Below, one piece after another: positions 5,880-59,106 of a stretch of 63,145 nucleotides of DNA. Position 1 is the first letter of the stretch. Each line of letters opens with the position of its first letter. The stretch spans positions 1 through 63,145 of the forward strand of contig CAYSFB010000012.1 in NCBI GenBank assembly GCA_964430735.1. Direction: 5' to 3'. The translations under genes and the position numbers were made by a program. The DNA is from an uncultured Planctomycetia bacterium. GTDB lineage: Bacteria; Omnitrophota; Gorgyraeia; 2-02-FULL-51-18; JAGOUK01. The notes beneath the pieces were generated by a model that did no database searches, was not told the origin of the DNA, and saw only the letters and a program-made list of their open reading frames with translations.

Positions 5880-6072
5880 AAAATGAATGTTCTCTATGTA
5901 GATTGAAGCGTGCGTTTTGCGAGTGACGGGTGAATGCTACGCTTCCACCAAATCAGAGTCAACGATTCATTGTTGAAAAAAAATCATGTTTGAAATTTTT
6001 GTATTAAAAAGTAGGTTTGCGTCTATTTTGTTCTAAATTTTTATAAGAAACAGGACTGGGGATAAACGGAGG

Positions 6073-8352: not shown

Positions 8353-9509
8353 CGGACGGGCTCCGGACGGGACATCCGCACCAGCGGCGCGAGCAGAGCG
8401 GGAGCGGCGCCCAAAACCCCCATCACGATCCGCGATCCGGCGGCAGACCGTTCCGCCGCGCCGATCCAGGACCCGAACATGAATTTTTGTGAAAAAGCTT
8501 TTCTCCACGCGCGCTCAAAATCAGCGGCGACGCGGCGTTCGTCCAAAAGTTTTTGGTCCGTTCGCGCGGCCGCGAGGAGGTCGGCGAGCAGAACGCCCGA
8601 ATGCATCGCGATCGGAATTCCGCCGCCGATGACCGGATTGATCATCGACAGTGCATCGCCGACGCGGAACCTTCCGTCCCGGTAAAAAATCGGGTCGCCG
8701 TCCGGTTCGGCCTGGCACGTTTTCCAATCGCTGATCCGGACTGCATCAGCCATCTGCGACTTGAGCGCGGGATTCGAAGCCCAAAAACCCCGAACCATCC
8801 CGTCCAGATCGGCGGCCGCACCGCGCAGATAACGGCCGTCCACACACAGGCAGAGCGTCGTTTCGTCGGCGTTCAGCGGGTTCAGCCCCACATGCCCCCG
8901 TTCGATGAAGTGCAGCGCCACCGCGCCGGCGAGGCCCCGCACGCCTCGATACACGGCCTTGCACGCAAAAAAAGATCCTGTCCTGCCGTTGGCCGGACGC
9001 CGGCCCGTGGCGTCGATCCAATGCCGTGCCCGCACCGTCCGGTCCGGGCGGCCGTCCGCAAAACGCACGCGCGCCGTCCAAAAACCGTCCGCATGCGCCG
9101 TGTCGGCCGCCTGAGCGCCCGTCCACAACTCGGCGCCCTTGGCCGCCGCCGTATCCGCCATCCAGCGGTCAAAAATTCCCCGATCCACCGCAAACCCCCC
9201 GCCGCGCGGAAGGTCCGACTCAACCAGCCGCGGCCCGGAGCCCGAAATCTGAACGCGCCCGACCGGCGACTTGGGAAGCCGTTCCAACTCCGCCGACCAT
9301 CCCCATCCCCGGACCCAATCGGCGAATTCCGGCCCCAGGAATCCTCCGCACACCCGCACGCGGCCCGGCACCTCCCGGTCCAGCGCCAGAACCGACCACC
9401 CGCGCTCCGCCAGCCGCGCCGCGCAGGCGCTGCCGGACGGACCGGCGCCGACCACCAGCGCATCGAATATTTTTAAATCAGGCTCGGAGCAGTTCAGGCG
9501 GTTTTCCAT
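8349..9509 (-). CDS. FAD-dependent oxidoreductase (geranylgeranyl-reductase / UbiH-like flavoprotein family)
   Basis: N-terminal dinucleotide-binding motif DALVVGAGPSGSACAARLAERGWSVLALDRE. C-terminal GD-type motif RFRVGDALSMINPVIGGGI. About 386 aa. Confidence 0.75.
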   Translation of the reverse strand: MENRLNCSEPDLKIFDALVVGAGPSGSACAARLAERGWSVLALDREVPGRVRVCGGFLGPEFADWVRGWGWSAELERLPKSPVGRVQISGSGPRLVESDLPRGGGFAVDRGIFDRWMADTAAAKGAELWTGAQAADTAHADGFWTARVRFADGRPDRTVRARHWIDATGRRPANGRTGSFFACKAVYRGVRGLAGAVALHFIERGHVGLNPLNADETTLCLCVDGRYLRGAAADLDGMVRGFWASNPALKSQMADAVRISDWKTCQAEPDGDPIFYRDGRFRVGDALSMINPVIGGGIPIAMHSGVLLADLLAAARTDQKLLDERRVAADFERAWRKAFSQKFMFGSWIGAAERSAAGSRIVMGVLGAAPALLAPLVRMSRPEPVR

Positions 9510-43391: not shown

Positions 43392-43657
43392 TTGATGATC
43401 CGCCAGTCCATATCCTTAAAACGGTAAATCGGCTCACCGCCGCTACCGGGTCCAAAAACTTTAAGAAGCAGCATCAAAATGCCGATCGACACCAGCGCCG
43501 CGCCCATCAATTTGAAGATGAACGGCACCATCACGCGCGCGCCTTCCGAGGGCCTGCGGCCAAAGTCCGATAACGCCTTGTTTCCGGCCCATGCGAAGAT
43601 GGCCATGGGGCCGAACAGGCACAGGAGCATCACTAAAAGGACTAGAATTTTTTGCAT
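43388..43657 (-). CDS. Hypothetical 2-TM membrane protein (89 aa)
   Basis: MQKILVLLVMLLCLFGPMAIFAW ... FIFKLMGAALVSIGILMLLL. 4-nt overlap with the rhodanese gene. AT-rich divergent promoter region upstream. Confidence 0.5.
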   Translation of the reverse strand: MQKILVLLVMLLCLFGPMAIFAWAGNKALSDFGRRPSEGARVMVPFIFKLMGAALVSIGILMLLLKVFGPGSGGEPIYRFKDMDWRIIK

Positions 43658-43787
43658 CGGCGCGTGTTGTTTTTTCCGGTGGGCTATTATGTCACTTTTA
43701 AAAATTCACGCCAAGAAAAATCTAAATTTTGCACCATATCTGGGAAAGTATTGGTCTTTTTACGCAAAATATTGTATTTTTGACGCC

Positions 43788-44999
43788 ATGAGCCGGTTCA
43801 AGACCCCAGGTATTATCTTCCTATTGAGTCTTTTATCCTTACCTTTATTCACAGGTGTGGGCATAGCCGCCGACACCCCGTCTGACGAAGCCCGCCTCCG
43901 CCAGGTGTTGGACTGGGTATGGCGCACGATGGACAAGGAATACTATGAACCGGTCTCGCGGGAAATTTACGAAGACTATCTGCGCACCTATACCGTTCAA
44001 CAACTGAAGCGCTTGAACGATCAAAAACACCAAACCGAGGACTTCGTCCACCTGGGTGCCGGGCTGCTCGTTCAGAAGCTTAAAAAACCGACCGACCGCT
44101 TCTCGAATTTTGTGCCGCCGAAAAAGGCGGTGGAGTTCAAGCAGGATGCGTACGCGGCACGAACCGATCTGGGTTTGGAAGGTCGGGCGACTGACCGCGG
44201 CTACGAACTGACCCGAGTTCAAAAGCACAGCCAGGCCTTTGCCGAGTTGTTGCGAAGCGGAGATACGGTTCTGGCCGTTGACGGCAAACCGCTCGCGGGG
44301 CTGGATCTCGAGACCGTCCAGGGCCTCCTGAAGCCCGAGGTCGGAGCATCGGTACGGCTGAGCGTTTTTTTTGCGGCGACGGGCCGCAAGGGTGACGTCG
44401 TCCTGACCGCCGCGGATTATTTTACCGAGACGGTTCTGACGCCCGACAGCGGCATCCCCGGGATTTTCATCCTCCGGATCGACCACTTCAATCAGAAGAC
44501 CGGCCTGGACGCCGCCGAGGCGATCAACGCCTACGGATCACAGAACATCCGCCAGATCATCATCGACCTTCGCGAAAACAAAGGCGGACCTCCCCTGGCC
44601 ACGCGCGAAATCCTGGGCATGTTCACCCGTCCCGGAGATCCGCTCTTCATCATCGCGCGGCGCAACCGCCAACCGGCGCTGCTGTCGTCCGAAATGTCGG
44701 ACGCCCATTACCAGGGACCGGTCGTCATCCTCACCTCGGGCAAAACAGCCAGCGCCGCGGAAACGCTCGCCGGAGTTTTGAGAGAAAAACTCGGCGCCCG
44801 GATCGTCGGACAAAAAACTTTCGGCGCCTGCTATCTGAAAAGCATGTTCGACTACGAAGACGGGTCGACGATGCTGCTGGTGACGTCCAAAACATTTTTT
44901 CATAACCGCAAACCGGTTCCTGAAGAAGGAATTCAGCCGGATATCGTGATCCCCGAAGGCGCGGACACGCTCGCGGCGGTGCTCAAGGTTCTGGCGTGA
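43788..44999 (+). CDS. S41-family C-terminal processing peptidase (PDZ-containing)
   Basis: Start at ATG 43788 (MSRFKTPGIIFLLSLLSLPLFTGVGIAA signal peptide). PDZ-like GDTVLAVDGKPLAGL. IIIDLRENKGGP. Catalytic-Ser context VVILTSGKTASAAETLAGVL. Confidence 0.85.
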   Translation: MSRFKTPGIIFLLSLLSLPLFTGVGIAADTPSDEARLRQVLDWVWRTMDKEYYEPVSREIYEDYLRTYTVQQLKRLNDQKHQTEDFVHLGAGLLVQKLKKPTDRFSNFVPPKKAVEFKQDAYAARTDLGLEGRATDRGYELTRVQKHSQAFAELLRSGDTVLAVDGKPLAGLDLETVQGLLKPEVGASVRLSVFFAATGRKGDVVLTAADYFTETVLTPDSGIPGIFILRIDHFNQKTGLDAAEAINAYGSQNIRQIIIDLRENKGGPPLATREILGMFTRPGDPLFIIARRNRQPALLSSEMSDAHYQGPVVILTSGKTASAAETLAGVLREKLGARIVGQKTFGACYLKSMFDYEDGSTMLLVTSKTFFHNRKPVPEEGIQPDIVIPEGADTLAAVLKVLA

Positions 45000-47566
45000 T
45001 CCAGGCCCGGCGATTCCCCGCATGGGCCGCGTGGGCGGCGGCCGTCCTCGTCGCCGGAGCCGCCGGCGTTTACTTCCGCCTCTATCCCCTGACGGTTTTT
45101 CCGCACGACCTGTCCCAAAACAACGCGAAGGTTCTGGTCATCTCCAAAATGCGGCAGACGGCCGCGGAAGCGATCGGGCGGCGCGAACCGGGCCTGCCCT
45201 CCGTCGAGCGGCTCCGCCGCGCGAACGCGGTCGTCGCGCAGAACCTTAAGTCCGACCCTGCCGGATTCAAACGCGCTCTCGCCCGACAGACGCAGGCGCT
45301 CGAGCGCGCGATGCGTGCTGAGACCCGTGGCGGATTTTTGCTCGAAGTCGATCCCTACTATTACCTGAGCCAGACCGAACGGATTCTTAAAACGGGTCGG
45401 TTGGCGGAGCAAACCCGCGGCCGTGAATTCCTGAATCTGATGACGCTTGCGCCGGCCGGATATTGGTATCCGATGGATCTGCATCCTCAGATCGGAGCCT
45501 GCCTCGTCCGCATCGTCCGGATTACGCTTCCGAATGTCGACACGGTGGCCGTCGTCCGCTGGATTCCTCTCCTGGCGGCGTTGGCGGCGTTGGCGGTCTT
45601 CGCCGCATTTTGCCGGCGCACGGCCGGCGTCACCGGATGGGCCGGATTCGCGGGCCTGTCTTATCTGATGCTGTGTCCGATGTTTCTCAAGCGGAGCTTG
45701 GTCGGATGGTACGACACCGACCCCTACAACGTGCTCTTTCCGCTGGCGGCCATCGCCGGCATCTTCACCGCCTTCGGACCGGCGGCTTCCTCGCGTCAGC
45801 GCTGGATCGGCGCGGCCGGAGCCGGCGCGGCCTTCGCGCTGCACGCTCTGTTCTGGCGCGGTTGGCTGATTCCGTTCCTGGTGCTGTTCCTGCTGACGGC
45901 GGCAGGGTTGGCCGTTCCGCGGCGCCTGAGACCGGACGGACTGACCGTGCGGCTGCAGGCAGCGCTGCTCCTGCCCATCGGGCTCATTCCCCTCGCCGCA
46001 CTGACCGTCGTCTGGGGCTTCACGGGCCTCGGACAGGAAGCGGCGTCGGCCATCGATTTTATACGCGGTTTTCTCAAGCCGGGCTTCCAGCCCTGGCCGG
46101 ACGTTTTTATCACGGTGGGTGAGCTCAAACCGATGGGCTTCTGGCGTCTCACCCAGCTATTGGGCGGACCGCTTTGGGTGATCGCCGCTGTCGGCGGACT
46201 CGCGCTGGCGATCGCGCGCCGAATCCGGTCGGCGGACAAAGAGCCTTCCCGGCTCATCCCGATGATCGTTCTTTTGGGTGCGACCTGCGTCTGTCTCATC
46301 GTCTCGGTGCGGATCCAGCGCTTCGCCATTCTCGCGGCCGCGCCCCTGGCTGCGGCCATGCCGTTCGCCTGGGACGAATGGCGCCGACGCGCCGTCGCCG
46401 CGTTGCCGCACATCTTCGCCCCGCACGCCGCGCAGGCGATCGCTGCCCGCTTCCGGCTGATCTGGCCGGCAGCCATCATCGTTTCGCTGACGTTCCTCGG
46501 CGTCCGCGCGCATGCTGAGACCGTCCATTTTTACCCGCTGTACAACACGACCTGGGACCGGATGATGACGCAGGTCCGGACCCAAACACCCGAGGACGCG
46601 ATCATCACCAGTTGGTGGTCTCCGGGACATTTCCTGACATCCATGGGCGGGCGGCGCGTGACATTCGACGGGTCGAGCCAGAACGAGCCTCAGGCCTATT
46701 GGACCGCGAATCTCTTTTTGGAAAATTCCGAACGCGCCGCGCTGGGCATCCTCCGGATGCTCGACATTTCGGGCAACGCGGCGGTGGATCACTTGACCGC
46801 GCGCGGTTTTTCGATCGCGGACTCGGTCGACCTCATCCGCTCCGTGCTTCCGCTCTCCCGCAAGGACGCGCACGACAAGCTGACCCGCCGGTTCACCGCG
46901 GAAGAAGCGGACGCGCTGCTGGATTTGACGCACGGCCGGGCCATTCCTCCTCCCGCCTATCTTTTCGTCTACAACCACATGATCGAACAGGCGCTCGCTC
47001 TCGAATTCATCGGACGGTGGAACTTCCGCAAGGCGGAGGCGTTCGAACAATACCTCAGAGAACAGCCGGATGAAGTGGACCGCCGCCTGCTCACGCGGGC
47101 CACGCCCCAAAACACCAAACTGCTGTGGACGTTGAGTGAAAAACCGACCTTTTACGAAGGTGAAGGTTACCAGGTCGCGGCGAATGGGGACTTTGTGATC
47201 TTTTCAAACGGAGTGCGGCTGAACCTTAAAACCTGGGACGCCGAGATCCGGGGCAACCAGCATGTGAACGGCCGGCCGGTCAGCGTTTTCCGGATCAACG
47301 CTCGGAACGAGCTCGTCGAAACGCCCGTCGCTGAGCCGACCCTCACCGTTTCGGTGCTGCTGATTGAGGACTCCAAGCCCGGAGCTCCTTCCACTTACCG
47401 CTCGGTGATCATGGGCCGTCGGTTCGCCGGGTCGGTCGCGATGCGGCTTTATTATCTGGGAGGGCGCGGGCTGAAGATGATCCGGCAGGCCGCAGCGGAA
47501 GATTCGGCGGCGACCCGTACGCGCCTCGGACTGTTTGAAGTAGATTGGAAGCGGTTCGATTCTTAA
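44996..47566 (+). CDS. STT3/PglB/AglB-like oligosaccharyltransferase (GT-C fold), variant WWSPG motif
   Basis: 856 aa, about 13 TM plus a soluble C-terminal domain. Motifs in order: EVDPYYY (D119), RSLVGWYDTDPYN (D240/D242), TVGE (E376), SWWSPGH (aa 539-545). GTGA overlap with the S41 peptidase stop. Confidence 0.68.
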   Translation: MIQARRFPAWAAWAAAVLVAGAAGVYFRLYPLTVFPHDLSQNNAKVLVISKMRQTAAEAIGRREPGLPSVERLRRANAVVAQNLKSDPAGFKRALARQTQALERAMRAETRGGFLLEVDPYYYLSQTERILKTGRLAEQTRGREFLNLMTLAPAGYWYPMDLHPQIGACLVRIVRITLPNVDTVAVVRWIPLLAALAALAVFAAFCRRTAGVTGWAGFAGLSYLMLCPMFLKRSLVGWYDTDPYNVLFPLAAIAGIFTAFGPAASSRQRWIGAAGAGAAFALHALFWRGWLIPFLVLFLLTAAGLAVPRRLRPDGLTVRLQAALLLPIGLIPLAALTVVWGFTGLGQEAASAIDFIRGFLKPGFQPWPDVFITVGELKPMGFWRLTQLLGGPLWVIAAVGGLALAIARRIRSADKEPSRLIPMIVLLGATCVCLIVSVRIQRFAILAAAPLAAAMPFAWDEWRRRAVAALPHIFAPHAAQAIAARFRLIWPAAIIVSLTFLGVRAHAETVHFYPLYNTTWDRMMTQVRTQTPEDAIITSWWSPGHFLTSMGGRRVTFDGSSQNEPQAYWTANLFLENSERAALGILRMLDISGNAAVDHLTARGFSIADSVDLIRSVLPLSRKDAHDKLTRRFTAEEADALLDLTHGRAIPPPAYLFVYNHMIEQALALEFIGRWNFRKAEAFEQYLREQPDEVDRRLLTRATPQNTKLLWTLSEKPTFYEGEGYQVAANGDFVIFSNGVRLNLKTWDAEIRGNQHVNGRPVSVFRINARNELVETPVAEPTLTVSVLLIEDSKPGAPSTYRSVIMGRRFAGSVAMRLYYLGGRGLKMIRQAAAEDSAATRTRLGLFEVDWKRFDS

Positions 47567-48264
47567 GAAGCTTCGGTCCGGTTTTTGGCTTTTTCCGTAT
47601 AGATCAGATACTCCAGCCTCCGGGCCTGATCCTGCCGGCCCAAACGTCTCATCTCGGTGACAGCGTCCAGAGCCAAGTCGGTCCGACCCGCATAAACAGC
47701 CGTCACACCGATCAGTTTGAGCGTTCGCATAGAATCGGGATTCACGGCCCGCGCCTTTTCAAGCGACGCGAACGCAGCGTCCCAGTTTTTTTTCCGGTAA
47801 TAGATTCCCGCGAGTTCCTGGTGGGCCGCTTCGAAAGACGGCTTGATCCGGATCGCCTCCAGATAGCGCTCCTCCGCCTTGTCGTTCTCACCGATCGCAG
47901 CATAGGCCTTGGCCAGTGTATACAACGTCTTGGATTGACCCGGCTCTCTCCGCAGAGCTTCCTCCAAATGCAGCACCGCCGATTCGTATTCCTGGGTTTG
48001 GACATAAATGAGACCCAAGCTGTGATGGATCGCCGGGATATCGGGGGCGAGCTCCAGCGCGTCCATAAACGCGCGTTCCGCTTCAGCGTACCGCTTCGCG
48101 TTGAGAAGGCGGTTGCCCTTTTCGTAGAGAGCGGTGACACGCTGACGGTTTTCGGGGGAGATGCTTTGGACGGAAGAGCGGGCGGAGAAGTCGGTCTGAG
48201 CCCAGGAAGGTGTCGCCGCCGTCAGCACAACGGCGGCGCAGCAAGAAACGATCAGGCGGGTCAC
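47563..48264 (-). CDS. TPR-repeat protein (PilF/PilW-like), last gene of the T2SS-like array
   Basis: Signal sequence MTRLIVSCCAAVVLTAATPSWAQ. About five TPR units (YAEAERAFMDALELAP, YESAVLHLEEALRREP, DKAEERYLEAIRIKP, WDAAFASLEKARAVNP ...). Confidence 0.75.
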   Translation of the reverse strand: MTRLIVSCCAAVVLTAATPSWAQTDFSARSSVQSISPENRQRVTALYEKGNRLLNAKRYAEAERAFMDALELAPDIPAIHHSLGLIYVQTQEYESAVLHLEEALRREPGQSKTLYTLAKAYAAIGENDKAEERYLEAIRIKPSFEAAHQELAGIYYRKKNWDAAFASLEKARAVNPDSMRTLKLIGVTAVYAGRTDLALDAVTEMRRLGRQDQARRLEYLIYTEKAKNRTEAS

Positions 48265-48899
48265 GCCAGGTTTTTGAGCCCCAGCTTCACGATCGAAAAT
48301 CTGAAACGCAGTTCGTCGTTGGCGGCGCCCTGCCCTCTCAGGCTGAATCCCGCGATCCGGATCGCGGGGTTGGATTGCTCCAGAGACGCCATGAACTGCT
48401 TGATGTTCGAGATGCTGCCGGCCCCTTCCACATCGACTTTAAGGGAGTAAGCCGTGCCTGCTTCTTCGGCCTGCACGGGATTGATGTTGGAGATGAACAG
48501 TCCGACGCTCTGGGAAACGCGTTCGATTTCGCCGAGGTAAGCGGCGATCTCCTCCTCGCGCGAAAGCGCGGGGTCGGTCAAATAGCCGGACAGGGATTCG
48601 TAGGTCTTCTCGATCTGGTCTTTTTTACCCAGGACGGCCAGCTTCTTCGGGATGAGGTCTTCCTTCTGGCGGATCGTCGCAGAGAGCTTGTCCAAATGAC
48701 GGCCCAGGGGCTTGAACATGATCCAATCCATCACGAAAAACATCAGGATGAACGCCGCGACTGCGGCGATCGTCTTCTCCCGCGGCGAAAGCTTGGCGAT
48801 AAAAGCGAGCGGATTGGCTTTGGGCTTGGGTGCGGCTTCCGGCGCTTTTGCGTCAGTTTTTTCGGGGTTCGTTTGGTCGGTCGGGGCAGCGTTCGCCAT
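48261..48899 (-). CDS. PilO/GspM-like bitopic assembly protein
   Basis: Cytoplasmic N-terminus, one TM (TIAAVAAFILMFFVMDWIMF), coiled coil, then a ferredoxin-like C-terminus (GLFISNINPVQAEEAGTAYSLKVDVEGAGSISNIKQFMASLE). Position is after the PilM-PilN-like gene. Confidence 0.6.
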   Translation of the reverse strand: MANAAPTDQTNPEKTDAKAPEAAPKPKANPLAFIAKLSPREKTIAAVAAFILMFFVMDWIMFKPLGRHLDKLSATIRQKEDLIPKKLAVLGKKDQIEKTYESLSGYLTDPALSREEEIAAYLGEIERVSQSVGLFISNINPVQAEEAGTAYSLKVDVEGAGSISNIKQFMASLEQSNPAIRIAGFSLRGQGAANDELRFRFSIVKLGLKNLA

Positions 48900-48903
48900 C
48901 GGA

Positions 48904-50346
48904 TCAGACCTCCTCTAAATTGGCGCTCAGGCCGAAGTCCGTCATGTCCTTACCATCCACTTTTCGGCTTTTGGCATAATCGTTTTTGACGTTCTTGAAG
49001 ACCGGGTTGTTCTCAAATTCGGTGACGAACGAAAACACCCTCGACATCAGCTCCGAAGTGCCCTTGATGGCGACCTTGCCTTCGGCGTCGACGCTCAGTT
49101 CATTCAAATACATCTCCCGGGGGAGGGCTGTTTCCAGCTGAGTCAGCGCGCGCAGACCGGAACCGCGCTTGGCTTCAAACTGGCGGATCAACGCGCTCTG
49201 GTCCGACAAACCGATCAGACGTTCCGCCTGCTGGTTCTTGGCCGCAAAGTTCTTGTCGAGCGCGCCGATGTAGGAAGACTTCAGGTAGACCTTCGCGACG
49301 AACACGCCGAGGAGCAGCGCCGCGATGATCATCGCGAACGTTGCAGCCGCAAAGATCTGCTGGGCCCGCCCGCGGAAGCTGCGGCGGGTTTTGAGGTCGT
49401 CCGGAATAAAATCCATCGCCGCCGGACGGCGGAGAACGGCCGGAAACAGGACCGCGTCCATGGGCGACTGGAACATTTCGGATTCCGAGGCGCGGGCCTG
49501 GGAAGTGGCGGCCACGTGATCAGCCGCGCGCACCTGCTCGAGCGGCAGGCCGCAGGCACTTTTCACTTCGGCCGCAAGCTGGGCGATGTCGGACGAGTCG
49601 GGCCCGATCAACAGAAGTTTCTGAAGCGAGCGGTTGGGTTCGGCGGACTGAAACGCCTCGATGGATTTCTGAATTTCCGCGGCCAGCTCGCGCCGGCTGG
49701 CGACCTGCTGGAGCTGCTTGGTGCCGATGCCGACGCTGCGGACGAAAAACGGCTTGGATTTGCACATGACGATCAAGTCGGCGTGCTCCACATCAACCAG
49801 CACGGCTCCGGTGACGTCCCCATCGGCCACCAGACCGGCTTCGACCAGTCCTTGCGCCACACCCTCAAACGCGACTTCGACCTTGCCGATTTCGACCCCG
49901 GCCAGGCGCAGAACATCGAGGTGCTTGCGAATATTGCCCAGGGAAATGATGACCAGGAGCGCCTTGGTGTAGCGCTCAAGCACCTCTTCGAGATTGAGGT
50001 GGTTGCAGATGATTTCGTCTTTGGAATACGGGGTATGACGGCTGGACTGGAGCTTGACGATGGCTTCGATTTCCTGCGGATCGAAGGAAGGCACTTCCAC
50101 GCTCTTGGTGATCGCAAACTTGGAGGTCACCACGACCCGGGCCGGCACGGACCCGGCGCGGACGGCGGCAAGCCCGCGCACCGTCTCGTCCACAAGCCCG
50201 TTTTCGTCGAGCGCGGAGACGTCGGAATAAAATACGTGCTGGATCTCGGACTTTCCCTGCTGTGTCCGGACGGTCGCCATTTTGAGCGAAACGCCGTCAA
50301 GGTACACAACCAGCTCATCCTGCCGCAGGAACGGAAGATTGCTCAT
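48904..50346 (-). CDS. PilM-PilN fusion / GspL-like assembly protein
   Basis: Start at ATG 50346 (ATGA overlap with the gspK stop). Actin-like PilM pattern (...VEVPSFDPQEIEAIVKLQSSRHTPYSKDE..., LRLAGVEIGKVEVAFEGVAQGL, VLVDVEHADLIVMCKSKPFFVRSVGIGTKQL). TM IFAAATFAMIIAALLLGVFVA, then a PilN-like periplasmic domain. Confidence 0.65.
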   Translation of the reverse strand: MSNLPFLRQDELVVYLDGVSLKMATVRTQQGKSEIQHVFYSDVSALDENGLVDETVRGLAAVRAGSVPARVVVTSKFAITKSVEVPSFDPQEIEAIVKLQSSRHTPYSKDEIICNHLNLEEVLERYTKALLVIISLGNIRKHLDVLRLAGVEIGKVEVAFEGVAQGLVEAGLVADGDVTGAVLVDVEHADLIVMCKSKPFFVRSVGIGTKQLQQVASRRELAAEIQKSIEAFQSAEPNRSLQKLLLIGPDSSDIAQLAAEVKSACGLPLEQVRAADHVAATSQARASESEMFQSPMDAVLFPAVLRRPAAMDFIPDDLKTRRSFRGRAQQIFAAATFAMIIAALLLGVFVAKVYLKSSYIGALDKNFAAKNQQAERLIGLSDQSALIRQFEAKRGSGLRALTQLETALPREMYLNELSVDAEGKVAIKGTSELMSRVFSFVTEFENNPVFKNVKNDYAKSRKVDGKDMTDFGLSANLEEV

Positions 50347-51419
50347 GAAGACTCCATCCATCTTTGGATTCCGCGGCGCAGACCGTAAACGCTCATGGTC
50401 TGACCGCGGGATTGTTTGGCCGACGCCTCAACGACGACGGAAAAATAATTCGAACTCAAGGCCACTGATCTTTTTGCAAACGCATGCCTCAGAGAAACCT
50501 GTTCCTGAAGCCTGAGGCCAAAGGCTGATTTGAGTTTGAGCTCCAAATCCGCCTGACTCTGAAAAACAACGTCATCCGCCGTTCCGCTGATTTCGTCCGG
50601 CCCCGCCCGCAGCGCAAGAATCTTGGTTCCGACGCCGGGATGCAGATCCAGCAGACTGATCAGCTCGGGGCCCGCGGAGTTCAAGTTCACCGCGCCGTCC
50701 CCGTAGACCGTGACATAAAACCGGATGCGGGCGTAAATCTCCCGGGTCATTCCCGGCAACCGCAGAAGCTCGGACACAAACTCGTAATCCGAATTTTTGG
50801 GCGGATAATTCAGCCCCGCCGCATGATACCGGGACTCTTCCGAGCCCCCGGCACCGACAGTTGCGGTCACCGCATCGTCGGCATCCCGATAATCCACTAT
50901 CTGACCCGCGAGGTCCGCGGCCGCTTCACTGTCGAGACCAGCAGCCGTCAAAAAACGCATCAAAAAAAACCTGTCTGCGCGGTTCAGATTTATTTTTCGA
51001 GACTCGTCCATTATACCATAAGTAGTTGTCTGTTTCTGTCTATTCGAGTCAATTTCCGCCTGATTTTGTTCAAATACAGAAATACCCGCTTGGTTTTGCT
51101 GGTCATCCGGTGGAGGAGGGAGCGGCACGACCGGCTTGAACATCGCCTGGTTTAGCTCCCCTTCGGCATACTGGGCGACCGCATAGGATTCCTGCAGTGA
51201 AAACGGCGCTCCTGGCTCCCGCACCCTCAGATGATCGATCGCCGACTTCACCCCGGCTTCCGCCGCCAGTCGCACCCGCTCGCGCTCATCGAGCTTTTGA
51301 AAGAAAAACACGTTTTGCCGTACTTTACCGGCCAGCGTAACGGCCAAAAAAGCGATGAAAGCCGTCGTCCACAGGACGAGGATCAGCACACTGCCCCGGC
51401 GGCCCCATGACCCCCTCAT
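50343..51419 (-). CDS. gspK: Type II secretion minor pseudopilin GspK
   Basis: RRGSVLILVLWTTAFIAFLAVTLA. DESRKINLNRAD. YPPKNSDYEFVSELLRLPGMTREIYARI. GAVNLNSAGPELI (the HhH-like repeats typical of GspK). Confidence 0.78.
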   Translation of the reverse strand: MRGSWGRRGSVLILVLWTTAFIAFLAVTLAGKVRQNVFFFQKLDERERVRLAAEAGVKSAIDHLRVREPGAPFSLQESYAVAQYAEGELNQAMFKPVVPLPPPPDDQQNQAGISVFEQNQAEIDSNRQKQTTTYGIMDESRKINLNRADRFFLMRFLTAAGLDSEAAADLAGQIVDYRDADDAVTATVGAGGSEESRYHAAGLNYPPKNSDYEFVSELLRLPGMTREIYARIRFYVTVYGDGAVNLNSAGPELISLLDLHPGVGTKILALRAGPDEISGTADDVVFQSQADLELKLKSAFGLRLQEQVSLRHAFAKRSVALSSNYFSVVVEASAKQSRGQTMSVYGLRRGIQRWMESS

Positions 51420-51991
51420 GCTTCCTCCGTCCCGACAGGAGCGGCCGGAATCCGCACGTCGCGCGACAAAACCCGCGGTCCGAACCGGCCCTCGTAATCC
51501 ACTCGAATTTTGACGCGGCGCGGGATTTGACCGGGTTCCATTTCGTACTCGAACCGGACGGCGCTCACCCGGCTCATCACCGTTTCGGTTTTTGACGCTT
51601 CCGGAACTTCGAACGTCTGAGGCCGGACCGCTTCCCGGACCAGCCGACCCGTTTCCGCGTCATAGCGGTAGCTCACCTGGATCGGCGACGGGTCAGGCGC
51701 ACCGGCGACCGCCGACAGATCTTCGAGCGAAGCGAAGCTCATCCGGTCTTCGGCGCCTTCAAAAGGAATCAGGGAATAAGCGTTCATGCCGCGCAGGTCC
51801 CGCGTCATCTTGACCATGCCGACGGCGGCCGCCTCCTCCTGAGAGGCCGCGGAGAGCTTGGAAAACATGCGGATGCCCTGCGTCATGAAAACGGCAATCG
51901 TCGCGGCGGAGGCGAGCAGGAGCGCGGAGGCGAGCAGGAGTTCGATCAGCGTGAATCCGGAACGGTCCGGACGGCCGTTAGTTGGCGACAT
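51416..51991 (-). CDS. Minor pseudopilin, GspJ-like
   Basis: Start at ATG 51991. Prepilin-type N-terminus DRSGFTLIELLLASALLLASAATIAVF. 191 aa. ATGA overlap with gspK. Confidence 0.7.
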   Translation of the reverse strand: MSPTNGRPDRSGFTLIELLLASALLLASAATIAVFMTQGIRMFSKLSAASQEEAAAVGMVKMTRDLRGMNAYSLIPFEGAEDRMSFASLEDLSAVAGAPDPSPIQVSYRYDAETGRLVREAVRPQTFEVPEASKTETVMSRVSAVRFEYEMEPGQIPRRVKIRVDYEGRFGPRVLSRDVRIPAAPVGTEEA

Positions 51992-52370
51992 AGGCCGATC
52001 GCGAAAGCCCTGCGGTTCCCTCGCCCATCCAGTTGACCGTGGTCCGAAGCTCGACAAGCGACCCCGCCTGATTCACGGGCAGCGTTTCGATGCGGTAGCG
52101 GAAAGGAGTGCCGTTTTCGACGACTTCTCCTTCGAGCGGAAGCGCGCGGAGGCTGCGGTCCGCCTTGAAGCGGAATTCGGCATCGACGATGAGGTTATTC
52201 AGCACATTTTCGGCGTCAGCGCGCTGGTACAGGTAGCGGAGATGATCGGACGACCGCTGCAGCGCCGGAAGCGCGAGCAAAGCACCGGCGGCCAGAAGCG
52301 TGATGGCCATCAGCACTTCGACGAGCGTGAACCCCCGAAGCGACTTATTGCCAGTTGGCAATCCAGACAT
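51978..52370 (-). CDS. Minor pseudopilin, GspI-like
   Basis: Start at ATG 52370. Prepilin-type N-terminus SLRGFTLVEVLMAITLLAAGALLAL. 130 aa. Overlaps the gspG 3' end by 26 nt. Confidence 0.7.
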   Translation of the reverse strand: MSGLPTGNKSLRGFTLVEVLMAITLLAAGALLALPALQRSSDHLRYLYQRADAENVLNNLIVDAEFRFKADRSLRALPLEGEVVENGTPFRYRIETLPVNQAGSLVELRTTVNWMGEGTAGLSRSAYVAN

Positions 52371-52764
52371 CCGGATTCGACTTGTCGCGTCCGTACGAGT
52401 ACAGGTCGTATCCGACTCCATGCGTGCCCGGATTGGCGTATTGGTAAGGTTCGCCCCAGGGATCGATGGGCTTCTTTTCGAGATAAGGCCCGTTCCAGTT
52501 GCGGGGCGCCGGCGGCGACGTCGGTTTGACGAGCAGCGCCTCCAGCCCCTGAGCCGTCGTCGGAAACATTCCATTGTCGAGTTCGTACAGCTTGAGAGCG
52601 GAAGCGATGTTCGCGCTGATGTCCACTTGCGCAACGGTGACGAGAGCCCTCTCGCCGCGTCCCGCCAGTCTCGGGACCACCATGACGGCCAAAGCGCCGA
52701 TGATCATGACCACGAGCAAAATTTCGATGAGCGTAAATCCGCTCGTACTTTTTAATTTCTTCAA
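52345..52764 (-). CDS. gspG: Type II secretion major pseudopilin GspG
   Basis: MKKLKSTSGFTLIEILLVVMIIGALAVMVVPRL ... ALKLYELDNGMFPTTAQGLEALL ... GPYL...PIDPWGEPYQYANPGTHGVGYDLYSYGRD (T2SSG signature). Confidence 0.93.
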   Translation of the reverse strand: MKKLKSTSGFTLIEILLVVMIIGALAVMVVPRLAGRGERALVTVAQVDISANIASALKLYELDNGMFPTTAQGLEALLVKPTSPPAPRNWNGPYLEKKPIDPWGEPYQYANPGTHGVGYDLYSYGRDKSNPDVWIANWQ

Positions 52765-52776
52765 TTTATCTCCTTC

Positions 52777-54024
52777 TCACCGCAGAACGTCCATTTCAAA
52801 AATAGGCATCAACATCGCGAGCACCACAAATCCGACGATCCCTCCGACGATGACGATCATCGCCGGCTCCAACAGGGAGGTGAACATGCGGATATGGTCT
52901 TCGACTTCTTCTTCGTAGACCTGGGCGATCTCCACGAGGAGGTTCTGAAGATTGCCCGACTCTTCTCCGACGGCGACCATGTCCGTCACCAAAAACGGGA
53001 ACGCCCCGGTCTGGCGGAGCGACTGGCCAAAAAAGGCTCCGGTCCGTACGCGGGCGGCGGCGTCCTGGAGCGCGGCGCGCAGATGGGCCAGGTTCACGAT
53101 CGGGCCGGCAACTTCCAACCCCTGAAGAAACGGAACGCCGTTGGACATCGACATGTGAAGCGCCCGGCAGAAGCGCGCGATCTCCGATTTGAGCAGCAAC
53201 GGCCCGATCAATGGCCATCCGGCGCGCATCCGGTCCCATTCCTCATCGCCCATGCTTTGCCGCATCCGGCGCGGAAGCCACACGGCCGCCGCGTATCCGA
53301 GCAGAATCACGACGGGCCATCCGTAGCGCATGGCGTTGCCCGCTGCGATCACGATTCTCGTCGGAAGCGGAAGCTCCTGTCCGATGTTTTGGAACAACAG
53401 GGTCAACCGCGGCACGACGAACGTCAGAATGAAGAGCACCGTCACAAGGCCCGCACCCAACAAGAAGAGCGGATAGACCATCGCCTGGCGAACCGTGCTG
53501 CGCAGCCGCTCGTGTTTTTTTAAATGTTCGCTCAAGATAAGGAGCGTCTCCTGCAGCACGCTCCCCTGTTCCCCCGAACGGACCATCGCCACGTACATCC
53601 CGGAAAAATATTCCGGATGCGATTCGAGCGCGGCAGAGAGCGTGCGGCCTTCCTTGAGGTCCTTGTGCAGGTCGGCGAGGACCGATCGAAATTCCTTGTC
53701 CTGGGTTTCGTCGCGGATGATTTCGAGCGCCCGAAGCACCGGGATCTGGTTTTTGAGAAAAGCGGACAGGTGCCGGCTGAAGATGATGACTTGTTTCTCG
53801 CGGCGGCCCGAGTTGCGCTGCCATGCGGGGACCGGCGTTCGGACGCCGCGGTCCGAGGCGGCGGAGCGGGGGGAAACCGGCTGGTTTTTTTTGGGCCACA
53901 CCCGGACCGGGAGGTAGCCCTTGCGGCTGATCCGGTCGATCGCTTCCGTTTCGGTCGCCGCTTCCACCGTCCCTTGGACCTGACGGGTCGGACCGTCCTT
54001 GGCCAGGTATTCGAATTCGGGCAC
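52777..54024 (-). CDS. gspF: Type II secretion / type IV pilus platform protein GspF/PilC
   Basis: 415 aa with two T2SSF repeats (FSRHLSAFLKNQIPVLRALEII..., FCRALHMSMSNGVPFLQGLEVAG...) and 3 TM. C-terminal PAMIVIVGGIVGFVVLAMLMPIFEM. Confidence 0.93.
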   Translation of the reverse strand: MPEFEYLAKDGPTRQVQGTVEAATETEAIDRISRKGYLPVRVWPKKNQPVSPRSAASDRGVRTPVPAWQRNSGRREKQVIIFSRHLSAFLKNQIPVLRALEIIRDETQDKEFRSVLADLHKDLKEGRTLSAALESHPEYFSGMYVAMVRSGEQGSVLQETLLILSEHLKKHERLRSTVRQAMVYPLFLLGAGLVTVLFILTFVVPRLTLLFQNIGQELPLPTRIVIAAGNAMRYGWPVVILLGYAAAVWLPRRMRQSMGDEEWDRMRAGWPLIGPLLLKSEIARFCRALHMSMSNGVPFLQGLEVAGPIVNLAHLRAALQDAAARVRTGAFFGQSLRQTGAFPFLVTDMVAVGEESGNLQNLLVEIAQVYEEEVEDHIRMFTSLLEPAMIVIVGGIVGFVVLAMLMPIFEMDVLR

Positions 54025-54027
54025 GCG

Positions 54028-55752
54028 TTAGACGGTTCCTATGCTGGCGACGTTGATCACCTCACCGGTGGTGGTGATGCCTTGCAGCACTTTGCCCCAT
54101 CCGTCCTGCAGCAGCGTGAGCATGCCCTCGGAAGCGGCTAGAAGCTTGATGTCCTGGGCCGACGCCTGCCGGAGGATCGCTTCCCGGATCGGATCCGTGA
54201 CGGTGAGAATTTCGTGCAGGGCCGTTCGGCCGTAAAAGCCGGTCTGATTGCATTCGGAGCAGCCGCGGCCCACCCAGGTCTTGACCGGGTCGCCTGCCGG
54301 AAGCCGAAGGTCGCGGCGGATGCGGTCCCGGATCGGCTGCGGTTCAAACGAGTTCTCCTCCTTGCAATGAGGGCAGATCACGCGGACCAGGCGCTGGGCG
54401 ATGACGGCCTGAACGCTCGACGCGATCAGGAACGGTTCGACGCCGATGTCGACCAGCCGGTTGAATCCGCTCGCGGCATCGTTGGTGTGCAGCGTCGAAA
54501 AGATCAAATGCCCGGTGAGCGCCGCGCGGATGGCGATCTCGGCCGTTTCGAGGTCGCGGATTTCTCCGACCATCATGATGTCGGGGTCGTGGCGCAGCAT
54601 GCTCCGCAGTCCGCTGGCGAAGGTTAACCCGACCTTGGGCTGGACCTGGATCTGCGTGATGCCCTGAATGTCGTACTCGATCGGATCCTCGAGCGAAATG
54701 ATCTTGAGGGAGTCGGAACGGATCTGATTGAGACAGGTGTAGAGCGTTGTGGTCTTGCCGCTGCCGGTCGGTCCGGTGAGCAGAACGATTCCGTGCGGAC
54801 GGTTGATGAGATCGTTGACGATCTCCACGTTTCCGGGCGTGAGGCCCAGCCGGCCCAGGTCGAAGGTCAGTTCGGTCTTCAGCACGCGGACGACGATGCT
54901 TTCGCCGTAAGGCGTGGGAATGCACGAAACGCGCAGATCGAGTTTTTCGTCCCCGATCTTCACGATCGCGCGGCCGTCCTGGGGCAGCCGGTGCTCGACG
55001 ATGTCCAGATTGGACATGATCTTGATGCGCGAAATGATCGGCAGGATGAGCGCGCGAACCTTTGCCGGCAGGTTGGCGTCGCTGAGAATGCCGTCGATCC
55101 GGTAACGCAACCGGAACTGGCCTCGGTACGGCTCCAGATGGATGTCGGTGGCGCGCTTTTTATAAGCTTCGAGAATGATTTCGTTGACCAGACTGATGAC
55201 CGACGCATCGCCCGCCATCTGGTCGGCGGTGGCGATGCTGTTGACCTCGACGTCGTCACGCTGGGTGTCCGCATAGGAGGAGGAAACGATCTGATCGACG
55301 GTTCCTGCCGCCATTCCGTACGCGCGGCGGATCAACTCCTGGATCTCTTCGCGTTTGGCCAGAATCTGCTCGACGGCGAATCCGGTCTGCATCCGAATCT
55401 CGTCCTGGGTCTTGAGCGTGACCGGATAGTGGCAGGCAATGGTCAACCGGTTGCCCTCGATCCGGATCGGGGCGAATTGATAATGCGCCGCAACTTTGAT
55501 CGGGATCCTTCGAACGAGCTCTTGCGGGATCTGCACGGCAGAAAGGGTTTCGTACGGAATATTGAGTTGGCGGGACAGAACGGGATACAAAGCGTCCGGC
55601 TGGGATCCAAAGTCCTGGCAGAGGTGCTCGATCAGGGGCCGGCCGGTCTTTTGGGAGCGGTTCAAGGCTTCCTCAAGCGACCGCCGGTTGACGATCCCCT
55701 CTTCCACCAGACGATTGCCGAACGTGGTGTCGATACGGATGTCGGAACGCAT
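54028..55752 (-). CDS. gspE: Type II secretion / type IV pilus assembly ATPase GspE/PilB
   Basis: 574 aa. N-terminal GSPII_E_N-type domain. Walker A LLTGPTGSGKTTTLY. Asp box, Walker B IMMVGEIRD, His box LTGHLIFSTLHTN. Tetracysteine CPHCK...CSECNQTGFYGR. Confidence 0.95.
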   Translation of the reverse strand: MRSDIRIDTTFGNRLVEEGIVNRRSLEEALNRSQKTGRPLIEHLCQDFGSQPDALYPVLSRQLNIPYETLSAVQIPQELVRRIPIKVAAHYQFAPIRIEGNRLTIACHYPVTLKTQDEIRMQTGFAVEQILAKREEIQELIRRAYGMAAGTVDQIVSSSYADTQRDDVEVNSIATADQMAGDASVISLVNEIILEAYKKRATDIHLEPYRGQFRLRYRIDGILSDANLPAKVRALILPIISRIKIMSNLDIVEHRLPQDGRAIVKIGDEKLDLRVSCIPTPYGESIVVRVLKTELTFDLGRLGLTPGNVEIVNDLINRPHGIVLLTGPTGSGKTTTLYTCLNQIRSDSLKIISLEDPIEYDIQGITQIQVQPKVGLTFASGLRSMLRHDPDIMMVGEIRDLETAEIAIRAALTGHLIFSTLHTNDAASGFNRLVDIGVEPFLIASSVQAVIAQRLVRVICPHCKEENSFEPQPIRDRIRRDLRLPAGDPVKTWVGRGCSECNQTGFYGRTALHEILTVTDPIREAILRQASAQDIKLLAASEGMLTLLQDGWGKVLQGITTTGEVINVASIGTV

Positions 55753-58890: not shown

Positions 58891-59106
58891 TTAGTAGAGT
58901 TTGACCAACTGGAAAAAAACCAACAACGATACGATGATGAGGCACTGATTGAATATCAGCAGTGTCACCATTCCGATCAGAATCACGGGTCCCGACGAGG
59001 GGTTCCGCGAGAGCGCCTTGACGGTCGTGTGACCTATGATCGCGACGACTCCGGAAGGGCCCAGGATCGCCGCAGTCGTAACCAGAAACAAAATGATGAT
59101 GTCCAT
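58891..59106 (-). CDS. F-type ATPase c-subunit-like hairpin protein lacking a membrane carboxylate
   Basis: 71 aa: MDIIILFLVTTAAILGPSGVVAIIGHTTVKALSRNPSSGPVILIGMVTLLIFNQCLIIVSLLVFFQLVKLY. Two TM helices with a polar loop SRNPSS (cf. ARQPE). No Asp or Glu in helix 2 (only N54/Q55). Confidence 0.62.
   Translation of the reverse strand: MDIIILFLVTTAAILGPSGVVAIIGHTTVKALSRNPSSGPVILIGMVTLLIFNQCLIIVSLLVFFQLVKLY

Follow-up and report, generated by a model that had tools for sequence, protein, structure and literature searches.

The window analysed here, a stretch of 63,145 nucleotides (contig CAYSFB010000012.1 of assembly GCA_964430735.1), encodes at positions 58891-59106 of the minus strand a protein of 71 amino acids which sequence comparison identifies as a genuine but divergent c subunit of an F-type ATPase. 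The conserved ion-binding carboxylate is replaced in this protein by glutamine (Gln54), and the gene is part of a cluster that encodes an F-type-like ATPase lacking subunit a, followed by the genes of a type IV filament machine. We consider it probable that such divergent, glutamine-type c subunits form a mechanical rotor ring which is driven by ATP, is linked to the pilus and transports no ions.

The 71-residue hairpin is homologous to F-type c subunits

The translation of the gene is MDIIILFLVTTAAILGPSGVVAIIGHTTVKALSRNPSSGPVILIGMVTLLIFNQCLIIVSLLVFFQLVKLY. A preliminary description of this DNA, made from the sequence alone, had noted a two-helix hairpin in which D2 is the only acidic residue and helix 2 contains neither Asp nor Glu, and sequence and structural model agree with it on each of these points. 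In the AlphaFold2 model of the monomer (mean pLDDT 90) the helices span residues 2-34 and 36-69, and the loop R34-N35-P36 lies between them. The R-N-P loop, the part of the hairpin that contacts gamma/epsilon, is kept by every full-length member of the family described below except P0019, which has RNS; this count was taken from an exhaustive hidden Markov model (HMM) search made without any sequence pattern. The loop is polar and c-like, as first described; the contrast drawn then between SRNPSS and the ARQPE of F-type c subunits does not hold, since RNPS is itself canonical (SRNPS in yeast, ARNPS in bovine and GRNPE in Chloroflexus c).

The gene starts 10 nt 3' of the epsilon gene and ends 15 nt 5' of a gene for a b-delta fusion, which is the b-like gene of the preliminary description. 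Pairwise comparison of the window and five orthologous loci gave dN/dS values of 0.01-0.04 at dS 0.7-1.4; the gene is thus under strong purifying selection (dN/dS about 0.03). Across orthologues 73-97% identical to the protein, 36 of the 71 columns are invariant.

Used alone, the sequence gave no match to the Pfam family ATP-synt_C (PF00137) even at E <= 1, and a direct NCBIfam scan returned nothing useful; lack of a Pfam match had been named in the preliminary description as an outcome that would count against its reading. A word-indexed search yielded seven close homologues, one of them carrying the JGI annotation 'F0F1-type ATP synthase membrane subunit c'. When an alignment of close homologues was used as query, the exhaustive HMM search of 1.84 billion representatives returned 37 proteins at E <= 1e-3, a family of hairpins of about 70 residues with the consensus ...ILGPSAVIAAIGYASIRALGRNPSAAPKI....LIFAEAIAVIALLVLFQLF. 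PF00137 was matched at E <= 0.01 by 24 of 28 family members, including P0004 (75% identity with the protein of the window; E = 4.9e-4), P0008 (1.5e-4) and P0011 (1e-9). The orthologue of the syntenic locus L009 matched it at E = 9.7e-6 with 26.2 bits, over the 24-bit gathering score.

A set of seven canonical c subunits (E. coli, I. tartaricus, Bacillus PS3, spinach, yeast, bovine and M. phlei) served as reference for profile-profile comparison with hhalign. The glutamine clade of the window alone aligned with a probability of 85.6% (E = 5.6e-6), and 27 family members together with 95.5% (E = 1.4e-8). The homology claim is therefore carried by the PF00137 matches of the orthologues or by the profile-profile comparison, both significant, the single sequence being insufficient for the profile check that had been proposed at the outset.

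A profile search of all PDB sequences at E <= 10 gave five matches, all five being c subunits of rotary ATPases: Chloroflexus F-type c at E = 0.046 and V-type c subunits at 0.7-3. When the AlphaFold2 model was compared with the PDB by Foldseek, c subunits of rotary ATPases accounted for 50 of 50 among the matches listed; the top one, Chloroflexus 9itt_I, had a probability of 0.99 and a TM-score of 0.74. The Foldseek E-values for this 71-residue hairpin are weak (0.19 at best). GP motif, RNP loop and Glu column stand in a conserved register.

The protein resembles canonical AtpE (PF00137; Chloroflexus aurantiacus 9itj, spinach c14, yeast and bovine c) in its hairpin of about 70 residues, the small-residue 'GP' motif of helix 1 (ILGPSGVV versus IGPGVG), the cytoplasmic R-N/Q-P loop, the spacing of 20 residues from loop Arg to ion site, and a gene position just 5' of b in an operon that also holds alpha, beta, gamma and epsilon. 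It differs in having Gln for Glu/Asp, no partner subunit a, no direct Pfam match and a helix 1 poorer in Gly. Assembly into a ring under gamma and epsilon is most likely, with indirect support from the near-universal RNP loop and the presence of the gamma and epsilon genes.

Glutamine occupies the position of the ion-binding carboxylate

Gln54 was aligned with Chloroflexus E57 and with the Glu of yeast-type V-ATPase c in the HMMER alignments to PDB c subunits, and with E. coli D61 in both hhalign comparisons; its distance from R34 (+20) equals that from R41 to D61 in E. coli. Because the spacing and the two kinds of alignment all agree, Gln54 is assigned to the carboxylate column, which is without an acid as the preliminary description had stated. 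In the window and in all orthologues at least 73% identical to it, Gln54 stands in place of a membrane-embedded Glu or Asp in helix 2. This part of the proposed homologue check supports the substitution; more distant orthologues do not share it, for those at 66% identity or less, which are syntenic and a-less (L009 and L016 among them), retain Glu. An outcome named beforehand as speaking against the reading has thus come about in part, which leaves the observation itself standing.

The triplet N-Q-C of the window recurs in all five orthologous loci compared with it, its codons differing only synonymously (AAT/AAC, CAG/CAA, TGC/TGT). The recurrence of the triplet with synonymous codons, together with the low dN/dS, identifies the missing carboxylate as real, and a sequencing or frame error hiding an acidic residue is excluded. 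The change from Glu to Gln requires a single base substitution (GAG/GAA to CAG/CAA). A sodium-site reading of N53/Q54 was ruled out: the helix-1 equivalent of I. tartaricus Q32 is Val or Ile and a counter-charge is absent.

The cluster encodes an F-type-like ATPase without subunit a

On the minus strand the genes follow the order large repeat-rich protein, 441-residue protein, alpha, epsilon, c hairpin, b-delta, gamma and beta, and then the pilus genes. From position 62199 down to 52345 the gaps between adjacent genes measure 0-29 nt, or the genes share a few bases. Promoter and terminator scans performed no better than with shuffled sequences, so that the operon structure is read from gene spacing only.

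All of alpha, beta, gamma, epsilon, b and delta were recognised by Pfam and NCBIfam models, with b and delta fused and epsilon and alpha shortened. With the NCBIfam models of canonical atpA and atpD, alpha and beta exceed the respective cut-offs. The catalytic motifs of beta are intact (P-loop GGAACGKT, catalytic GERLREG and the Walker B region), and alpha carries the P-loop GDRMSGKT and the Arg-finger motif SVSRIG; its N-terminus is about 20 residues shorter than that of canonical alpha. Epsilon consists of the N-terminal beta-sandwich domain only; the C-terminal helical domain, through which canonical enzymes inhibit hydrolysis, is missing. Judged by the beta GGAACGKT and GERLREG motifs, the alpha SVSRIG motif and an epsilon without inhibitory domain, the F1 head appears competent for hydrolysis.

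The b-delta protein is composed of an N-terminal transmembrane (TM) helix, a long coiled coil and an OSCP C-terminal domain. Its best NCBIfam match is TIGR03321, 'alternate F0 subunit B' (E = 1.5e-13, below the cut-off of that model). It matches the C-terminal two-thirds of OSCP only, and the N-terminal domain of delta was undetected; since alpha is also N-terminally short, the attachment of the stalk to the head is modified.

Subunit a was sought in several ways. A scan for its Arg motif (R-[LV]-x-[GA]-N type) gave nothing real in 809 kb, comprising the window and 95 related loci, and Pfam scans of most large open reading frames (ORFs) of the window did not find it. There is no space for a further gene between the assigned genes of the cluster, in the window or in the loci. 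Only three unassigned ORFs with at least four hydrophobic or TM segments occur in the loci, and none of the three matched ATP-synt_A. An ATP-synt_A protein with the essential Arg is thus not encoded alongside the other subunits within the window and the 95 loci, and the missing subunit a of the preliminary description is supported for the cluster. A conserved membrane Arg or Lys that could pair with a ring Glu was also sought in the TM helices of b-delta and of the 441-residue protein, and none was conserved. The b-delta TM helix does contain a conserved Gln, which is also present in E. coli b and does not co-vary with the Glu or non-Glu state of c.

Directly before alpha, in the commonest gene order, lies the gene of the 441-residue protein. 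This protein has an N-terminal signal or anchor, two repeats (each a beta-sandwich and a helical bundle) and a C-terminal TM helix, whose region carries an invariant TTWK..I..F motif with TTW before the helix. It matches no Pfam or NCBIfam family, and PDB profile and fold searches gave nothing meaningful beyond generic beta-sandwich domains.

Eight of the related loci (L020, L027, L028, L032, L043, L060, L078 and L079) carry two adjacent alpha-like genes plus beta, for example at 4450-5934 and 5885-7366 of L027; the paired genes are about 40-50% identical to the window alpha. This suggests heads built from three paralogues in these versions.

The carboxylate has been lost repeatedly in related loci

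The 95 loci were collected from a genome scan (five loci of metagenome-assembled genomes), a metagenome scan with an 11-sequence alignment (80 loci) and further contig look-ups, and their ORFs were assigned by BLASTP with the window proteins. Of the five genome-scan loci four are labelled Omnitrophota and one Planctomycetia, and the protein matches are named Candidatus Omnitrophica. A c gene is present in all 95 loci. Glu is found at column 54 in 79 of the 95 loci and, after representatives were added, likewise in 79 of 95 unique sequences (83%). The nearest Glu-bearing relatives of the window clade are those of L009 and L016 ('FNEA'/'YNEA'), which are 59-62% identical and share its synteny.

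Sequences without a carboxylate comprise the window clade ('FNQC') together with P0008 ('FNQA'), a second glutamine group with 'FAQS' (L012-14/P0015), P0020 (Gln), L039/L047 (Met; a Glu-bearing sequence is 91% identical to it), L071 (Ser), a group of L048 (Thr) and P0014 (Ser), L085 (Gly), and P0037 and P0042 (Ala). For most of these groups the nearest relative is a Glu-bearing sequence, and the carboxylate was lost in at least seven independent lineages, with Q, M, S, T, G and A as replacements. Column 54 ranks 27th of 56 in entropy across the family. These comparisons indicate that the constraint on the carboxylate is relaxed, though still present, across the family. The a-less state appears as a family-wide feature older than the loss of the carboxylate, and the loss itself as a later, recurrent, lineage-specific relaxation that is no hallmark of the whole family. 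The cluster is indeed a-less, as the preliminary description supposed, but the missing carboxylate does not simply 'fit' the missing subunit, because distant a-less orthologues mostly retain Glu. In those relatives Glu may be structural or may interact with a further partner.

Two family members, P0009 and P0010 (L015, 990-1406), are tandem-duplicated c subunits of 138-140 residues, with two hairpins and Glu in both halves; their gene adjoins an epsilon gene. Locus L005 (CAZHID010000017.1) is labelled 'uncultured Planctomycetia bacterium'. Its cluster proteins are 75-96% identical to those of the window, and the other close matches are labelled Omnitrophota; the Planctomycetia label of L005 is probably a taxonomic misassignment.

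The ATPase genes are linked to genes of a type IV filament machine

A shared gene set was found in about 45 loci longer than 6 kb: large repeat protein, 441-residue protein, alpha, epsilon, c, b-delta, gamma, beta, GspE, GspF, pilin, GspK-like protein and PilMN. The identity of c to the window protein falls to about 40% among them. The order of the ATPase genes varies (alpha-epsilon-c-bdelta-gamma-beta, epsilon-c-bdelta-alpha-gamma-beta or epsilon-bdelta-c-alpha-gamma-beta; variation was seen in L046, L052, L054, L058, L061 and L074 and in L032, L043, L086 and L088), while the link to GspE/GspF is constant. Among the 35 loci that reach far enough, 34 have GspE (T2SSE) next after beta. In the window the GspE/PilB gene begins 25 nt after beta; its product has an N-terminal MshEN domain, a c-di-GMP-binding module in other systems. 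Neither a PilT-type retraction ATPase nor a secretin was found among the cluster genes scanned with Pfam.

In related loci the cluster opens with a homologue of the large repeat-rich protein, with more than 2100 residues in L087 (3-6452) and further examples in L073 (1-2784) and L008 (3-2105). Its Pfam matches were rejected as driven by composition and repeats: significant stretches numbered zero in all but one listed match, which was below its cut-off.

Locus L059 encodes at 7321-8649 a 442-residue protein with about eight hydrophobic segments, after c, b-delta and alpha; no gamma, beta or GspE gene occurs in the 7 kb past it. This locus may represent a rearrangement of the cluster or a version of another kind.

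Comparison with known F-type and F1-like ATPases

Seymour et al. 2023 (PMC10066038, Nat Microbiol) described in Omnitrophota a 'symbiotic', non-respiratory F-type ATPase co-located with type IVa pilus (T4aP) clusters. It was reported within 10 kb of T4aP genes in 57 of 66 contigs and in every class; its alpha phylogeny groups with the Mycoplasma Type 2 and Type 3 enzymes, and a role in attachment to host cells or motility was proposed (PMC10066038). In the window, divergent alpha and beta genes likewise lie within 10 kb of T4aP genes, adjoining those for GspE, GspF, pilin and PilMN. The locus is therefore an instance of the published cluster and is not categorically new. That work classified the ATPase by alpha/beta phylogeny only, and its main text and the supplements searched mention no c subunit, c-ring, subunit a or protons; the present analysis contributes the anatomy of the membrane sector, the a-less state and the polymorphism between Glu and Gln. 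A preprint of 2026 that deals with complete genomes of Omnitrophota (bioRxiv 10.64898/2026.06.07.730766) reports alpha and beta in 125 of 176 genomes but an 'incomplete F1F0 chemiosmotic apparatus', as well as subunits of V/A-type ATPases in most Gorgyraeia. Both observations fit the assignment of the alpha and beta genes to a pilus-linked machine.

The MIB-MIP antibody-cleavage system depends on the Mycoplasma Type 3 'F1-like X0' ATPase. The membrane part of this enzyme, a 12-TM protein, is unrelated to Fo; homologues of b and c are absent, and the gene just 5' of alpha specifies a protein that has a signal peptide and C-terminal TM helices (PMC12994834). The window cluster resembles the Mycoplasma Type 2 (gliding G1) and Type 3 systems (Beven et al. 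2012, PMC3369863; PMC11864180; PMC12994834) in the surface role, not bioenergetic, of an F1-like module, the absence of subunit a, an alpha without the N-terminal helix, and a signal-peptide/C-terminal-TM protein encoded 5' of alpha (compare the 441-residue protein). It differs in having c and b-delta and no 12-TM ORF, the reverse of the Mycoplasma clusters of seven genes, which carry the 12-TM and a small cytoplasmic protein and no b, delta or c. By NCBIfam score alpha and beta are nearer to the canonical atpA and atpD models (516 and 519 bits) than to those of MMOB1660/1670 or MSC_0619/0618 (282-414 bits); the published alpha phylogeny places the Omnitrophota enzyme with Types 2 and 3 (PMC10066038).

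With the N-ATPase (atpDCQRBEFAG) the cluster shares a long b of about 246 residues with a delta-like C-terminus, as reflected in the TIGR03321 match of b-delta. N-ATPases, however, have a subunit a, AtpQ and AtpR and a c subunit with the full sodium-binding set, none of which is found in the window cluster; no such genes fit its gaps, and all alt_F1F0 models scored below their cut-offs.

Hairpins without a carboxylate exist in duplicated c subunits (V-type c and Acetobacterium woodii c1) and in the laboratory mutants cD61N and cD61G of E. coli, in which transport is abolished. A hairpin lacking the carboxylate there still folds and packs into a ring, as the window protein would. Natural duplicated c rings nevertheless keep the carboxylate in other hairpins and have a subunit a, whereas the sole c of the window cluster lacks it.

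In V-ATPases, single-pass proteins (yeast Voa1, mammalian ATP6AP1/Ac45 and ATP6AP2/PRR) insert a C-terminal TM helix inside the c ring. The 441-residue protein shares their type I topology, and similarity in sequence or fold was not found; its placement inside the c ring is a speculation by analogy. In the literature searched, the quest for earlier accounts of a-less or carboxylate-less F-type complexes linked to pili led only to Seymour et al. 2023, and no previous case came up of an a-less F-type complex whose single-hairpin c is by nature without the carboxylate.

Possible function of the c ring

Under the rotor-ring reading, the c ring would belong to a non-respiratory F-type-like ATPase made of alpha3beta3, gamma, a short epsilon, a b-delta stalk and the ring, co-transcribed in an Omnitrophota bacterium with GspE/PilB, GspF/PilC, pilins and PilMN/O as parts of a type IV filament machine. 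Hydrolysis of ATP by beta would drive rotation of gamma-epsilon, and with it of the attached c ring, relative to the b-delta stalk; the ring itself would be passive, a rotor or bearing in the membrane that moves with gamma-epsilon. Torque would be handed to a partner unrelated to subunit a, for which the 441-residue protein, GspF/PilC and PilMN/O are candidates.

Retention of gamma, the epsilon beta-sandwich, the c loop, an intact beta and the peripheral stalk argues that the complex would still be a rotary machine, working in the direction of hydrolysis. Lack of subunit a means lack of the half-channels; this, together with a Gln54 that has no titratable or cation-binding group, suggests that a ring of the glutamine lineage would be no proton or sodium turbine. 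The early proposal that such a ring could be a rotor or anchor and not an ion turbine stands as the most reasonable reading, although the absence of translocation by the glutamine-type ring is what we infer and not a demonstrated property. Ring formation, rotation and the identity of the output partner are presumed in the same way. Gln is the closest uncharged mimic of a protonated, lipid-facing Glu, which would explain why it is the commonest replacement. As a peripheral stalk is useful only if its membrane end is fixed, a non-homologous membrane partner should exist.

Several observations weigh against a rotor ring without ion transport. Most of the unique sequences, although from the same a-less cluster, still carry Glu, which argues that this residue still matters in those lineages. 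This leaves open an ion-conducting or charge-pairing partner that may have been replaced rather than lost in the glutamine lineage. Absence of subunit a applies to the window and the 95 loci, and its gene could still lie elsewhere in the genome. With subunit a absent, no anchor for the membrane helix of b-delta is evident.

A more far-reaching form of the rotor-ring reading, which we put forward as tentative and rather doubtful, makes the pilus-linked ATPase a transmembrane rotary transmission, in which the ion-free c ring passes torque through the inner membrane to the 441-residue protein as a shaft or to GspF/PilC and so rotates or actuates the pilus or adhesin apparatus with which host cells are attacked. 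Ion transport would then have been abandoned, and wholly so in lineages where column 54 holds Gln, Met, Ser, Thr, Gly or Ala, and the 441-residue protein would ride in or on the ring as a periplasmic shaft.

It is also conceivable, although unlikely, that the c ring is static and serves as a membrane anchor or assembly scaffold, with the F1-like head as a docking or unfolding ATPase for the pilus comparable to FliI/FliH/FliJ in type III export. With subunit a and the carboxylate absent nothing is known to engage a turning ring, the altered attachment of the stalk (alpha minus about 20 N-terminal residues, delta N-terminal domain undetected) would agree with such an anchor, and the Mycoplasma Type 3 ATPase offers a membrane part unrelated to Fo (PMC12994834). 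The full rotor set (gamma, epsilon beta-sandwich and R-N-P loop) and a full-length, TM-anchored stalk are however retained under selection; a stalk is needed only against torque, and FliI-type systems dropped both the ring and the alpha/beta heterohexamer.

We regard as improbable a non-canonical ion coupling in which GspF/PilC or the 441-residue protein acts as stator and the N53-Q54-C55/S60 cluster, or a carboxylate of the partner, binds the ion. It would account for the Glu kept in 83% of unique family members despite their a-less state, for the invariance of N-Q-C in the window clade and for the invariant residues at the TM helix of the 441-residue protein; a report on Klebsiella PulF, a protein of the GspF/PilC type, describes it as a trimeric ion channel (PMC10790770). 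On the other hand, the Met, Gly, Ala, Ser and Thr of sister lineages are incapable of ion binding, and no membrane-embedded Arg is conserved in the TM helices of b-delta or of the 441-residue protein. We know of no rotary ATPase that moves ions without a ring carboxylate, and the E. coli cD61N and cD61G mutants fail to do so.

That the gene is a functionless, decaying relic of a former Fo sector, as the loss of the defining catalytic residue and of subunit a could suggest, is strongly disfavoured and very hard to reconcile with dN/dS of 0.01-0.04 at saturating dS, 36 invariant columns and a c gene in each of the 95 loci. A generic two-helix membrane peptide resembling c by composition would agree with the lack of a Pfam match for the single sequence and the weak Foldseek E-values, but this reading is refuted by the transitive HMM links to PF00137, the hhalign result for the wider family (E = 1.4e-8), the PDB matches exclusively to c subunits, the conserved GP/RNP/Glu-column register and the gene position between epsilon and b-delta.

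Other genes of the window

The coordinates of the cluster and of its surroundings are given in Table 1. Two genes on the opposite strand, for an STT3-like oligosaccharyltransferase homologue and an S41 peptidase, lie between the pilus cluster and an ExbB/ExbD cluster, and the same layout is seen in L096 and L098.

A second c-like hairpin of 89 residues was detected with the HMM of the pilus-linked c family, at 36.8 bits compared with a best score of 8.1 among 2000 composition-preserving shuffles; no Pfam match was obtained for it. It has a GRRPS loop in the register of RNPS, Ala54 at the carboxylate column and an invariant Lys49 in helix 2, and is conserved at 79-90% identity in 12 homologues. 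Its gene is the first of a conserved set: hairpin, rhodanese, (FKBP), ExbB/MotA-type channel, ExbD, TPR and VWA proteins.

Table 1. Features of the ATPase and pilus cluster and of neighbouring genes in the window.
Feature	Position	Strand	Remarks
Large repeat-rich protein, last 267 residues	62322-63125	minus	from ORF finder; gene may start past the window end
Conserved membrane protein, 441 aa	60874-62199	minus	no known family; 5' of the ATPase genes
Alpha, 498 aa	59376-60872	minus	TIGR00962, 515.9 bits, residues 5-482 versus model 23-502
Epsilon, 85 aa	59117-59374	minus	PF02823, E = 3.7e-11, profile 1-79 of 80; TIGR01216 positions 1-82 of 130
c-subunit homologue, 71 aa	58891-59106	minus	RNPS-loop hairpin (loop codons 58999-59007); Gln54 at the ion-binding column
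Gln54, codon CAG	58945-58947	minus	equivalent of E. coli D61 / I. tartaricus E65; Asn53 (58948-58950) and Cys55 (58942-58944) on either side
b-delta fusion (peripheral stalk), 248 aa	58129-58875	minus	PF00213, E = 7.5e-12 (residues 129-234); PF00430 weak
Gamma, 285 aa	57242-58099	minus	PF00231, E = 1.9e-27
Beta, 483 aa	55778-57229	minus	TIGR01039, 518.6 bits, above cut-off
GspE/PilB-type assembly ATPase with MshEN N-terminal domain	54028-55752	minus	PF00437, E = 8.8e-128; PF05157, E = 1.5e-19
GspF/PilC platform protein	52777-54024	minus	PF00482, E = 1.2e-55
Major (pseudo)pilin, T2SSG type	52345-52764	minus	PF08334, E = 3.4e-30; N_methyl
Two minor pilin genes, N-terminal methylation motifs	51416-52350	minus	PF07963; start of the upstream one approximate
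GspK-like minor pilin	50343-51419	minus	PF21687, E = 4.4e-14
PilM-PilN fusion	48904-50361	minus	PF11104 and PF05137
PilO/GspM-like protein	48261-48899	minus	PF10741 and PF04350
TPR protein, last cluster gene on the strand	47563-48264	minus	Pfam scan; same position in L096 and L098
STT3-like oligosaccharyltransferase homologue, 856 aa	44996-47566	plus	PF02516, E = 2.8e-11
S41 peptidase	43479-44999	plus	Pfam
Second c-like hairpin, 89 aa	43388-43657	minus	pilus-linked c-family HMM matched end to end, 36.8 bits

Implications

The ring carboxylate and the arginine of subunit a are the residues on which every textbook mechanism of a rotary ATPase relies. The complex described here is natural, widespread and strongly selected, and it keeps a rotor ring and stalk though it is a-less and its carboxylate has repeatedly been replaced; this membrane-sector anatomy, a c ring and stalk without subunit a and with a dispensable carboxylate, was absent from the literature searched. 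It provides a natural test of the role of a c ring outside turbine function, and the Glu-type and Gln-type variants offer a ready comparison for residual ion coupling.

For the Omnitrophota 'symbiotic' ATPase, so far known by its alpha/beta phylogeny, these results propose a concrete anatomy of ring, stalk, single-pass partner and pilus platform. When the metabolism of Omnitrophota is reconstructed, the alpha, beta and c genes of this cluster should not be taken as evidence for chemiosmotic ATP synthesis. If the rotary transmission outlined above is true, the Fo rotor would have been put to a new use, in a bacterial surface motor of a new kind.

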